NCBI GenBank assembly: GCA_964390295.1
Contig: CAYMHR010000003.1
Location: 27,514-91,513 of the forward strand
Direction: 5' to 3'
Origin: an uncultured Eubacteriales bacterium
Lineage (GTDB): Bacteria > Bacillota > Clostridia > Oscillospirales > Acutalibacteraceae
DNA: 64,000 bases
Of this stretch, positions 36,537 through 37,704 are shown one piece after another (positions within the stretch are counted from its first letter, which is position 1; the number at the start of each line of letters is the position of its first letter). The position numbers were made by a program, and so were the translations under genes. The notes below the pieces were generated by a model. That model saw only the letters and a list, made by a program, of their open reading frames with translations, searched no databases and was not told where the DNA came from.

Positions 36537-36553
36537 GAAGTGAATAATGAATA

Positions 36554-36594
36554 ACAGCCGGCAGGTTTTGAAACAAACCTGTCGGCTGTGTTTT
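36554..36594. terminator. bidirectional intrinsic terminator
   Basis: ACAGCCGGCAGGTTT-TGAAAC-AAACCTGTCGGCTGT followed by GTTTTG. Confidence 0.85.
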
Positions 36595-36626
36595 GTGCTC
36601 TCGGTAAACCGGCAATACCGCTGGAA

Positions 36627-37343
36627 TTACTTGCGGCAAAGGTCAACGAAATGCTGGAAGAAGGGCATCATATCCGGCAGGTTGAAATTCTCCTCACCGA
36701 TCATGCGCTCCGGGTGCCATTGCACTGAAGCGATGGGAAGGCTTTCGTGCTCAATCGCCTCGATGAGACCGTCCTCGGTGGTGGCGGCAACGTGCAAGCC
36801 TTCGCCGCAGGTCTTGACAACCTGATGGTGATGAGAGTTGGTATAAAACTCGTTGCCAAATAGTCCCTGAAGCAGGGAGCCGGGCGTGGTACGTACCAAA
36901 TGGCGGTTTTCGCCGCTTTTGTACATAGCTTCGTGTGCGCGCTGGTCGGGACAATCCTCATCGATGTCCTGTACCAACGTGCCGCCCAGAGCCACGTTAA
37001 GAATCTGGTGGCCGCGGCAGATGCCGATAATCGGCTTTTTGCGTGCAACGAAAGCACGCACCAGCGCGATCTCCATTTCATCCATATCAAAGTCGCAGGA
37101 GGCCGCTTTGCGGTTGGCTTCGCCGTAACGGAAGGGATCGACGTCACAGCTACCACCGGGGAGCAACAGTCCGTCTGCCAGCTCGGCGTACTCGTCGATA
37201 TCTCCCAACGCCGTAAGAACAGGCAGAGCGCCGGCACGTACTAAAGCGCGGCAGTAGTTGGAACGAATCGTACATTTTTTCCCGATCCCGAAGTTGGCGC
37301 TGTCAACGTTGTTTTTGTGAGCGATGAGAATAACCGGTTTCAT
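36627..37343 (-). CDS. gamma-glutamyl-GABA hydrolase family class I glutamine amidotransferase (peptidase C26)
   Basis: GICRGHQ nucleophile elbow, HHQ, and the WHPE motif near the C-terminus. Confidence 0.82.
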   Translation of the reverse strand: MKPVILIAHKNNVDSANFGIGKKCTIRSNYCRALVRAGALPVLTALGDIDEYAELADGLLLPGGSCDVDPFRYGEANRKAASCDFDMDEMEIALVRAFVARKKPIIGICRGHQILNVALGGTLVQDIDEDCPDQRAHEAMYKSGENRHLVRTTPGSLLQGLFGNEFYTNSHHHQVVKTCGEGLHVAATTEDGLIEAIEHESLPIASVQWHPERMIGEENFNLPDMMPFFQHFVDLCRK

Positions 37344-37383: not shown

Positions 37384-37407
37384 ATGACAAATCTTCGGAT
37401 TTGTCAT
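37384..37407. promoter_or_regulatory. perfect 24-bp palindrome upstream of the amidotransferase gene
   Basis: ATGACAAATC-TTCG-GATTTGTCAT, about 40 bp upstream of the start codon at 37343. Confidence 0.45.
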
Positions 37408-37432: not shown

Positions 37433-37462
37433 TTGCTATTTGCTGTGGGGGTTTGGTATAAT
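37433..37462 (+). promoter_or_regulatory. promoter at the head of repeat copy 1
   Basis: TTGCTA, 18 nt spacer, TATAAT with TG at -15/-14. Confidence 0.55.
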
Positions 37463-37540
37463 ATACAAAGAAGGCTTTGCTTCGCAAATCCTTGCGCGCT
37501 TCGCGCTTCGGCACTGCGTGCCGCTTTGTTATTGAACCGC
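37455..37540 (+). repeat. copy 1 of the ~86-nt 'TATAAT + triple hairpin' unit
   Basis: GGTATAATATAC, then a 70-nt block folding into hairpins at 37471-37493, 37494-37506 and 37509-37523, then CTTTGTTATTG. Confidence 0.85.
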
Positions 37541-37580
37541 GGCGCGAAAATGCCCTTGCAAGCAAGCATGTTTCGCTTGC

Positions 37581-37668
37581 GGTATAATATACGGCGGAAG
37601 GGCTTTGCTTCGCAAACCCTTGCGCGCTTCGCGCTTCGGCACTGCGTGCCGCTTTGTTATTGAACCGC
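37581..37668 (+). repeat. copy 2 of the same unit, 126 bp downstream
   Basis: Same GGTATAATATAC head. The 71-nt block is identical to copy 1 except for one extra G and one T>C. Confidence 0.85.
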
Positions 37669-37704
37669 CACGGATAGATACAAAATCACAAGGAGGGCAA
37701 TACC

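Follow-up and report, generated by a model that had tools for sequence, protein, structure and literature searches.

Directly in front of glgB, two near-identical and hairpin-rich units lie in tandem in the window analysed here (the whole 64,000-nucleotide stretch of DNA), and the question they raise is what kind of sequence they represent. An earlier reading made from the letters alone, referred to below as the sequence-only reading, had offered a pair of small RNA genes, an attenuator or riboswitch-like leader of glgB, or a genome-specific structured repeat. The explanation favoured here, with a probability of about 0.7, is that both units derive from a DNA module of ~125-135 bp, neither coding nor autonomous, that inserts in one direction at extended -10 hexamers among gut Clostridia.

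The Tandem Units Upstream of glgB

Much of the local description given by the sequence-only reading was recovered. The sequence GGTATAATATAC is present twice, at 37455-37466 and 37581-37592, and the near-identical blocks comprise 68 nt each (37473-37540 and 37601-37668), with 67 of 68 bases identical; the block of copy 2 has one substitution relative to copy 1 and one extra G directly upstream. The arrangement noted in copy 1, TTGCTA separated by an 18-nt spacer from a TATAAT preceded by TG, was seen again in a promoter scan, where it is the best plus-strand promoter-like site. A folding check agrees with the three hairpins described for copy 1 (P2 to P4 of unit 1 in Table 1), and the ATG of glgB (37705) does lie 36 nt past the end of copy 2.

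Two elements of that description had to be reinterpreted. The “terminator-like” CTTTGTTATTG is really the 3′ strand of an outer helix, P1, in which ACAAAG (37465-37470) pairs with CTTTGT (37524-37529), followed by an ATTGA that is conserved in the family to which the units belong. Likewise, no part of that family is more conserved than the “unrelated” spacer (37537-37588) that separates the copies. Unit 2 is the truncated member of the pair, as its long hairpin and right box are missing, and in place of the 5′ strand of its P1 there is GGCGG (37593-37597), a possible pairing partner of CCGCC (37665-37669) just past ATTGAA.

A BLAST search of the window's own genome (1.54 Mb, 87% complete), a check suggested by the sequence-only reading, returned only two copies, as did a covariance model of the unit. 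The tandem repeat is not an assembly artefact. In eight contigs of the same species from other samples, all of which encode the neighbour protein in identical form, unit 1 is found at this same position, and these contigs stop within the repeated block or precisely at the last base that its copies share, as short-read assemblies do at a real tandem repeat.

The intergenic region between glgB and the divergent Peptidase_C26/glutamine amidotransferase gene spans 361 bp, and the latter gene has a promoter-like site of its own at 37407-37379 on the minus strand. An exact-protein look-up of GlgB found no record. The features of the locus are collected in Table 1.

Table 1. Features of the glgB locus (window coordinates), and empty sites in the window's own genome that are orthologous to three filled loci of G005 (contig coordinates).
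Feature	Position	Strand	Basis or remark
Host glgB promoter, -35-like hexamer TTGCTA	37433..37438	+	Outside the repeat; kept in the congener's empty site (L007)
Left box TGGTATAAT, extended -10, hexamer 37457-37462; left junction of the array	37454..37462	+	Filled/empty comparisons
Unit 1, complete	37463..37588	+	Covariance model R1: 120 bits over 37454-37588
Unit 1, P1	37465-37470 paired with 37524-37529	+	
Unit 1, P2; P3; P4	37471-37493; 37494-37506; 37509-37523	+	
Unit 1, ATTGAA	37531-37536	+	
Unit 1, long hairpin GCGAAAATGC-CCTTGCAAGCAA-GCATgTTTCGC	37544..37576	+	Flanked by A-tract and T-tract; terminator-like look
Unit 1, right box CGGTATAAT, without TG	hexamer 37583-37588	+	
Unit 2, 3′-truncated	37589..37669	+	Covariance model: 28-bit local match 37599-37651; 47.5 bits genome-wide
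Unit 2, P2; P3; P4; ATTGAA	37598-37621; 37622-37634; 37637-37651; 37659-37664	+	
Residual host leader, with ribosome-binding site AGGAGG (37691-37696)	37670..37704	+	Homologous to the congener's short leader (L007: ...TATAATAACAGTAATATGACAGGGGAGGGCGAAAAATGG)
glgB, 1,4-alpha-glucan branching enzyme, 667 aa	37705..39708	+	Pfam CBM_48, Alpha-amylase, Alpha-amylase_C
Divergent neighbour, Peptidase_C26/class-I glutamine amidotransferase	36627..37343	-	Pfam
Empty site, ruvC	C6:10550-10680		
Empty site, LysR	C22:1-340		
Empty site, acyltransferase	C9:11860-12130		

Architecture and Covariation of the Unit

The full unit is non-coding, is ~125-135 bp long, and comprises, in order, TGnTATAAT, helix P1 enclosing the hairpins P2 to P4, ATTGAC, a long hairpin, and YNTGG-TATAAT. 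The family form of the long hairpin is GCAAAAATGC-CCTTGCAAGCAA-GCATTTTTGC, and its top, CCCTTGCAAGCAAGC, is invariant across the family and lies between an A-tract and a T-tract. RNAalifold predicted a four-way junction plus the long hairpin from eight diverse units, and the covariance model built from this prediction (R1) recovers 45 units in the first loci and 86 units in 80 loci from named metagenome-assembled genomes (MAGs).

The covarying structure and the membership of the glgB units in this family are direct observations. In the 86-row alignment, 92.6% of the cells are paired versus 76.6% in column shuffles (0 of 500 shuffles reach 92.6%), although the shuffle figures, and those of a Wilcoxon test, overstate significance since the alignment is model-fitted and its rows are related. 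Controls with slid partners gave 34-49% paired cells. Both sides are changed in 42 of the 46 pairs, and all helices vary except for the invariant top of the long hairpin; the latter (helix 9) is 98% paired, with a lower stem that covaries and both sides changed in 9 of its 13 pairs. Compensatory changes in P1 are plain even in raw sequences, with strands TTGGCATA/TATGCCAA, TGTCACAT/ATGTGACA and GCGGTGCGG/CCGCACCGC alongside the ACAAAG/CTTTGT of the window, and it is because of these changes across units that the CTTTGT tail is assigned to the 3′ strand of P1. No conserved unpaired bases were found in the loops or junctions of the units.

Intrinsic terminators have a G+C-rich stem with a U-run directly after it. 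The family consensus has TTTTT directly after the upper stem of the long hairpin, which is terminator-like in form and may terminate transcription. In the window the T-run is broken (GCATGTTTCGC), and a terminator scanner made no call there.

A solitary copy of the conserved 3′ block (the long hairpin and a box-like end) was observed in another genome at ~1490-1545 of locus L022 (G275:C3), and no four-way junction precedes it. One half of the unit can therefore exist without the other.

Distribution and Spread of the Family

The sequence-only reading had recommended a search of relatives with the 70-nt block. When 60 relatives were searched with the 272-nt region (37433-37704), homologous units were found at other loci: a congener (G005) has several, and more came from further families of the order, with the inter-copy “spacer” giving the best match. 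A core 21-mer of the family (AATGCCCTTGCARGCAAGCAT), allowing up to two mismatches, was then sought in 401 genomes sampled from the order. It is present in 25 of these genomes, compared to none for a reversed-pattern control, and the matches are patchy, being spread over at least ten families besides the window's own. Copies per genome reach 20, 17, 10, 8 and 7, often with a tandem period of 124-129 bp and often at contig ends.

An exact-match scan for the 21-mer, with one genome per species, gave at least 115 named MAG stretches. All of the matches listed are from gut, rumen or faecal MAGs, and their labels include Oscillospiraceae, Lachnospiraceae, Ruminococcus, Blautia, Catabacter, Neglectibacter, Congzhengia, Ca. 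Colimorpha, Ca. Flemingiibacterium, Ca. Ornithomonoglobus and Bulleidia. One IMG/VR contig (L049) carries an ordinary unit upstream of a gene, and curated phage and plasmid collections contain no match to the unit.

The same patchiness is seen directly at the level of genus. Units occur in only 2 of 37 genomes of the window's genus, and genus g88 has 20 and 7 copies in two genomes and none in five. Near-identical copies occupy at least five loci in one genome (G280), and therefore indicate recent spread. In two others (G306 and G389) the copies belong to several subfamilies that differ deeply, and members of different subfamilies even stand side by side in one array. Such patchiness fits a mobile element with gains and losses rather than an inherited regulator.

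These results also bear on what the sequence-only reading had proposed. Of its “genome-specific structured repeat (REP-like)”, the structured repeat stands; genome specificity does not, as the family occurs in many lineages of Clostridia, and neither does the REP likeness, since the unit is ~125-135 bp long, embedded in promoters and oriented. Dispersed copies in unrelated contexts, named there as the observation that would speak against a glgB-specific role, are found in relatives.

Insertion at the -10 Hexamer and Orientation

The position of the left junction can be read from comparisons of filled and empty orthologous loci, and in four of four it falls at the host -10 hexamer. At glgB, the site is filled in the window and empty in a congener (G016, locus L007), where the same promoter (CTTGCTATTTGC..TTTGGTATAAT) is followed directly by a 30-nt leader and glgB, with no unit. 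At the other three loci, those of ruvC, a LysR-type regulator and an acyltransferase, it is G005 that carries the insert, and the window's own genome has the empty site. Here the empty host promoters read TGTGaTATACT or TGTGcTACAAT, and the G005 inserts start directly after the hexamer and end in TGTGG plus a hexamer, whereupon the host leader continues. Additional filled and empty pairs from genus g67, with flanks only ~63% identical, were left out of this tally.

The two ends of an array are not equally uniform. The left hexamer is TATAAT in 79 of 89 arrays and is preceded by the five bases TRTGn, the last of which is variable and which look host-derived. The right hexamer in the 89 arrays is TATAAT in 48, TAAAAT in 13 and TAGAAT in 10, and the YNTGG before it looks element-derived. 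Judging from these junctions, the hexamers may stem from a duplication of 6 bp, or the element may bring along either the left or the right one.

In a subfamily found on eight named MAG contigs (L110, L086, L129, L090, L061, L068, L119 and L097), the right box is CCTGG-TAAAAT and a further conserved GATTTTGCGG follows it. Either these are orthologous insertions in related species or the subfamily may extend past the box.

Orientation relative to genes was likewise observed directly. A co-directional gene starts within 300 nt downstream of 81 of 98 arrays and within 100 nt of 52 of 98, with a modal distance of ~28-40 nt, and a divergent gene starts within 300 nt upstream of 39 of 97 arrays and within 100 nt of 8 of 97. 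The downstream genes are unrelated and include those for the LysR regulator, ruvC, the acyltransferase and many others.

In the congener G005, in the region 1-420 of L010 (G005:C85), a tandem array of units is followed after ~210 nt by a gene whose product begins with MKNEKYYVGLDIGTDSVGYAVT, a Cas9-like RuvC-I motif. The stretch between this array and the gene has a strong hairpin terminator and might include a tracrRNA.

Folding as DNA or as RNA

Three features of the family bear on whether it folds as DNA or as RNA. The variable helices contain 44 G-U pairs versus 54 A-C mismatches among 2,237 Watson-Crick cells (~2,430 stem cells), which is to say that the stems have no G-U excess, even in an alignment produced with a top-strand model. 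In P1, the 5′ strand begins 2-3 nt past the left hexamer and spans the 2-8 nt after it, where transcription would be expected to start; a start ~7 nt downstream would cut this strand, yet P1 covaries strongly, which argues against a top-strand RNA.

The third feature is the bias of the loops. Among 274 distinct perfect hairpins with loops of 3 or 4 nt, the top-strand loop is T..C in 106 and G..A in 9, and the loop-closing pair is C-G in 187. Read on the bottom strand, the T..C loops become C(GNA)G or C(GNNA)G, loops of the sheared-G·A type that characterise highly stable DNA mini-hairpins, d(GCGAAGC) among them. Their third position shows no purine preference, unlike that of an RNA GNRA loop. 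In addition, with DNA parameters the bottom strand has the more stable fold in 84 of 96 units, and with RNA parameters this is so in 79 of 96.

The missing G-U excess, the overlap of P1 with the expected start and the strand-biased loops point to folding at the level of DNA over that of a top-strand RNA. With moderate confidence, then, the structure would matter in DNA that is folded or extruded, the bottom strand above all. A bottom-strand RNA appears unlikely because the sequence has no credible leftward promoter.

Alternative Explanations

Several of these observations speak against the two RNA-based explanations. Units that were genes for small trans-acting RNAs, with their own promoter and terminator, would be paralogous sRNAs that happen to lie upstream of genes; the consensus extended -10 box at the start of each unit, the long hairpin and subsequent U-run at about +90 to +120, and the conservation of structure with covariation are all in keeping with such genes. 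Stem sequences are almost completely different, however, even in adjacent units of one array (G389), and there is no conserved seed or binding surface because the loops are tiny and not conserved. The stems lack a G-U excess, the loops are optimised on the opposite strand, most of the P1 5′ strand would precede the transcription start, and strict placement at the host -10 with orientation to the downstream gene is unexpected for free-standing sRNA genes. The “pair of small RNA genes” of the sequence-only reading is consequently regarded as unlikely, in view of the unrelated downstream genes and the lack of both G-U enrichment and conserved unpaired bases. A tandem cis-regulatory leader of glgB, whether an attenuator or a riboswitch responsive to a metabolite or protein, is the least probable of the explanations and is largely refuted by the distribution of the units. 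While the units do sit directly upstream of glgB, with unit 2 in the likely glgB leader, the orthologous glgB promoter of the congener is entirely without the element, no other unit adjoins a glgB homologue among ~190 loci, and the module precedes unrelated genes elsewhere. Its junction and loops have no conserved unpaired positions, and it matches no Rfam family: in a check that had also been suggested earlier, no Rfam 15 family reached its gathering score in the window or in 18 other unit-carrying loci. Clostridiales-1 (RF01699) was rejected as a chance-level match, with 19.4 bits on the minus strand versus a gathering score of 48 (E=0.29) and no occurrence in the 18 other loci.

The remaining alternatives concern how units move, if they do. 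Y1 (HUH) transposition of a PATE-type IS200/IS605 derivative, as ssDNA inserted 3′ of TATAAT and with a right end that repeats the target, would account for insertion beside a fixed short sequence, the lack of terminal inverted repeats, the subterminal hairpins and the signs of DNA-level folding. A right end equal to the target would also give tandem arrays naturally, and ATTG can pair with the TAAT of the box in a guide-like manner. Against this, Y1_Tnp (PF01797) is absent from four of five high-copy genomes (93-99% complete) and present in two of five element-free congeners; a simple IS200/IS605 Y1 transposase model was rejected on the grounds that PF01797 does not track the units. The left-end hairpins are variable and the right-end hairpin invariant, unlike IS608-type ends, and no unit copy flanks a transposase gene, all of which makes this derivation very improbable. 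Alternatively, there may be no dedicated mobility at all, and units would be propagated by recombination, gene conversion or unequal crossing-over at the ~11-bp box (TRTGnTATAAT) and kept as strong insulated promoters. Consensus promoter boxes do flank both sides, no linked enzyme was found, and array copy number varies, with 3′-truncated terminal units in the window and in G005. Nevertheless, 11 bp of homology is a poor substrate for recombination, the upkeep of the four-way junction, strand-biased loops and invariant hairpin top would go unexplained, and an identical 21-mer crosses several lineages of Clostridia; this explanation, too, is considered improbable.

Searches for a partner enzyme or for signs of ongoing movement gave the following. 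No excised circle, within-species empty allele or other direct sign of movement was seen, the insertion being present in every same-species contig. The proteins encoded next to the units are not recurrent, the largest cluster of neighbours accounting for 7 of about 115 loci, and no transposase gene flanked by a unit copy was found. Two candidates for an autonomous copy were dismissed, as L022 has the 3′ block alone in an intergenic region and the IMG/VR contig L049 has an ordinary unit. A dif-like site (B. subtilis or E. coli dif, up to 7 mismatches) was not found in the window's 87%-complete genome, and the host targets have no XerD arm.

A Proposed Module That Inserts at Promoters and Its Probable Effect on glgB

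According to the preferred explanation, a mobile module spreads, or spread, among gut Clostridia by insertion in a single orientation at the -10 hexamer of sigma-A-type extended -10 promoters. After insertion, the host -35 and spacer would face one -10 box, and the host leader and gene would sit behind a second, extended -10 box. The host gene would keep a promoter because of this second box, and tandem arrays would arise because the right end of a unit is itself a site of the type that units enter. During mobilisation by an enzyme acting in trans, the DNA would be single-stranded and folded, or extruded, with the bottom strand as the main participant.

At glgB, an array would have entered the promoter, after which unit 1 stayed intact and unit 2 lost its long hairpin and box; the LysR array of G005 has a similar 3′-truncated final unit. 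Based on the predicted promoter and terminator activities of the units, glgB is probably transcribed from the right box of unit 1 (hexamer 37583-37588) through unit 2, as unit 2 has neither the long hairpin nor a box, plus any read-through from the original promoter. The right box of unit 1 would then be the promoter element nearest glgB, and the leader would measure ~110 nt, with the three hairpins of unit 2 before AGGAGG. The original promoter (37433-37462) would now face unit 1, where the long hairpin at 37544-37576 may stop part of the transcription. For glgB itself, the units provide no evidence for a glycogen-specific RNA switch.

A more specific proposal is tentative. In it, the family would represent a novel type of mobile DNA that is site-specific, non-autonomous and parasitic on promoters: an extended -10 (TRTGnTATAAT) is recognised, integration at the hexamer is precise, and the intermediate is folded bottom-strand ssDNA, in which an invariant hairpin accompanies a four-way junction with C(GNA)G mini-hairpin loops. 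The element would donate a new extended -10 such that the host gene stays expressed, and the enzyme could possibly be a housekeeping one. Also considered was a model in which extrusion of a 28-nt hairpin would rejoin the split promoter, placing TTGACG ~16 nt from the right TATAAT.

If the preferred explanation holds, many promoters in uncultured gut Clostridia would have been rebuilt by one small element, thereby gaining a new -10 context, an upstream terminator-like hairpin and, sometimes, a structured leader. Promoter and sRNA prediction would be misled in carrier genomes, and assemblies broken. Moreover, an element that targets -10 hexamers, has no linked transposase and bears signs of ssDNA folding would extend the targets known for small mobile elements, and possibly their mechanisms as well.

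Comparison with Known Elements

Literature searches found no published element with this anatomy or a -10 target, and the family is apparently undescribed. The nearest in concept are mobile promoters (PMC3575422) and promoter-bearing repeats such as Correia, ERIC and REPIN. Putative mobile promoters (PMPs), as introduced by Matus-Garcia, Nijveen and van Passel in 2012, are highly similar non-coding sequences upstream of non-homologous genes, across genera and families, that are not in Rfam (PMC3575422). The PMP is an operational category without anatomy or mechanism, built from the complete genomes of 2011, and the survey deliberately sampled -150 to -50, mostly leaving out the -10 box (PMC3575422). 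The same article refers to Correia elements as promoter-providing multi-copy repeats (reference 2 of PMC3575422). To count as a PMP, sequences ahead of non-paralogous genes must share at least 80% identity across 50 nt or more. In the family described here, a ~55-nt 3′ block is 81-88% identical or better between families, whole units are near-identical at five or more G280 loci, and the downstream genes are unrelated, so that the family qualifies as a PMP in this operational sense. The likeness to PMPs lies in highly similar non-coding units upstream of non-homologous genes, within and between genomes and not in Rfam; in contrast to PMPs, the unit family is defined by its structure and by its junction at the -10 hexamer.

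Other similarities are to recombination sites that act as folded DNA strands. Like integron attC sites and IS200/IS605 ends, the units combine variable sequence with conserved structure, have Watson-Crick-only stems, favour one strand, are fixed in orientation relative to a promoter and form head-to-tail arrays. Unlike these, they have no linked integrase or Y1 transposase, and no GTTRRRY core was recognised. They also differ from attC in that their sites are scattered promoters, not one attI, and in their shape of a four-way junction plus hairpin.

Correia elements (CREE/NEMIS) of Neisseria are small, non-autonomous, multi-copy and promoter-providing, and can fold into a structured transcript. 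They have 26-bp terminal inverted repeats, a duplicated TA target and an IHF site. The unit is similarly small, non-autonomous, multi-copy, structured and, by prediction, promoter-bearing for its neighbours, but differs in having no terminal inverted repeats, a -10 hexamer target, a fixed orientation and a four-way-junction body. The BOX elements of Streptococcus pneumoniae (boxA-boxB(n)-boxC) are modular, hairpin-rich intergenic repeats near promoters with a variable number of modules. The unit family shares these traits, without any sequence relationship, and its tandem unit is a whole module rather than an inner box. BOX elements are not known to have a fixed insertion point in a promoter or a terminal -10 box.

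Several known classes do not accommodate the unit. REP and REPIN sequences are imperfect palindromes of ~20-40 nt, present in tens to hundreds per genome, typically after genes and linked to RAYTs; the unit is 125-135 bp long with five helices, has 2 copies here and lies upstream of co-directional genes, and the fold family of Y1 and RAYT proteins (PF01797) is absent from four of the five high-copy genomes noted above. Classical MITEs, including Correia and RUP, are bounded by terminal inverted repeats and owe their target-site duplication to a DDE transposase. The ends of the unit (TATAAT-A... and ...YNTGG-TATAAT) are direct, not inverted, and the only duplicated sequence is the -10 hexamer, whose left and right versions often differ (TATAAT in 79/89 versus 48/89). 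PATEs derived from IS200/IS605 occur in genomes with a Y1 transposase, have similar end hairpins and insert 3′ of a fixed tetra- or pentanucleotide without duplication; of these traits only target-adjacent insertion is alike, given that the left- and right-end hairpins of the unit are dissimilar and a transposase is not associated. A riboswitch or attenuator class for glgB was set aside owing to the absence of a conserved gene association and of conserved unpaired binding positions. Overall, the family is best placed among small promoter-bearing mobile repeats, and there is some chance, short of an even one, that it is a promoter-targeting element that moves as ssDNA.

Neighbouring Features

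Two further features were noted near the locus. Between the eutH-like and Peptidase_C26 genes, 36547-36825 contains a gene for a 67-aa XRE-type helix-turn-helix protein together with one for a 158/159-aa protein without a Pfam domain, and this arrangement is conserved in the same-species contigs (L187-L189). The best promoter-like site on the minus strand (ATGACA-17-TATAAT, 37407-37379), that of the Peptidase_C26 gene, is overlapped in its -35 hexamer and spacer by a perfect 10-bp palindrome with a TTCG loop at 37384-37407 (ATGACAAATC-TTCG-GATTTGTCAT). This palindrome could be an operator, or a hairpin common to both divergent promoters.
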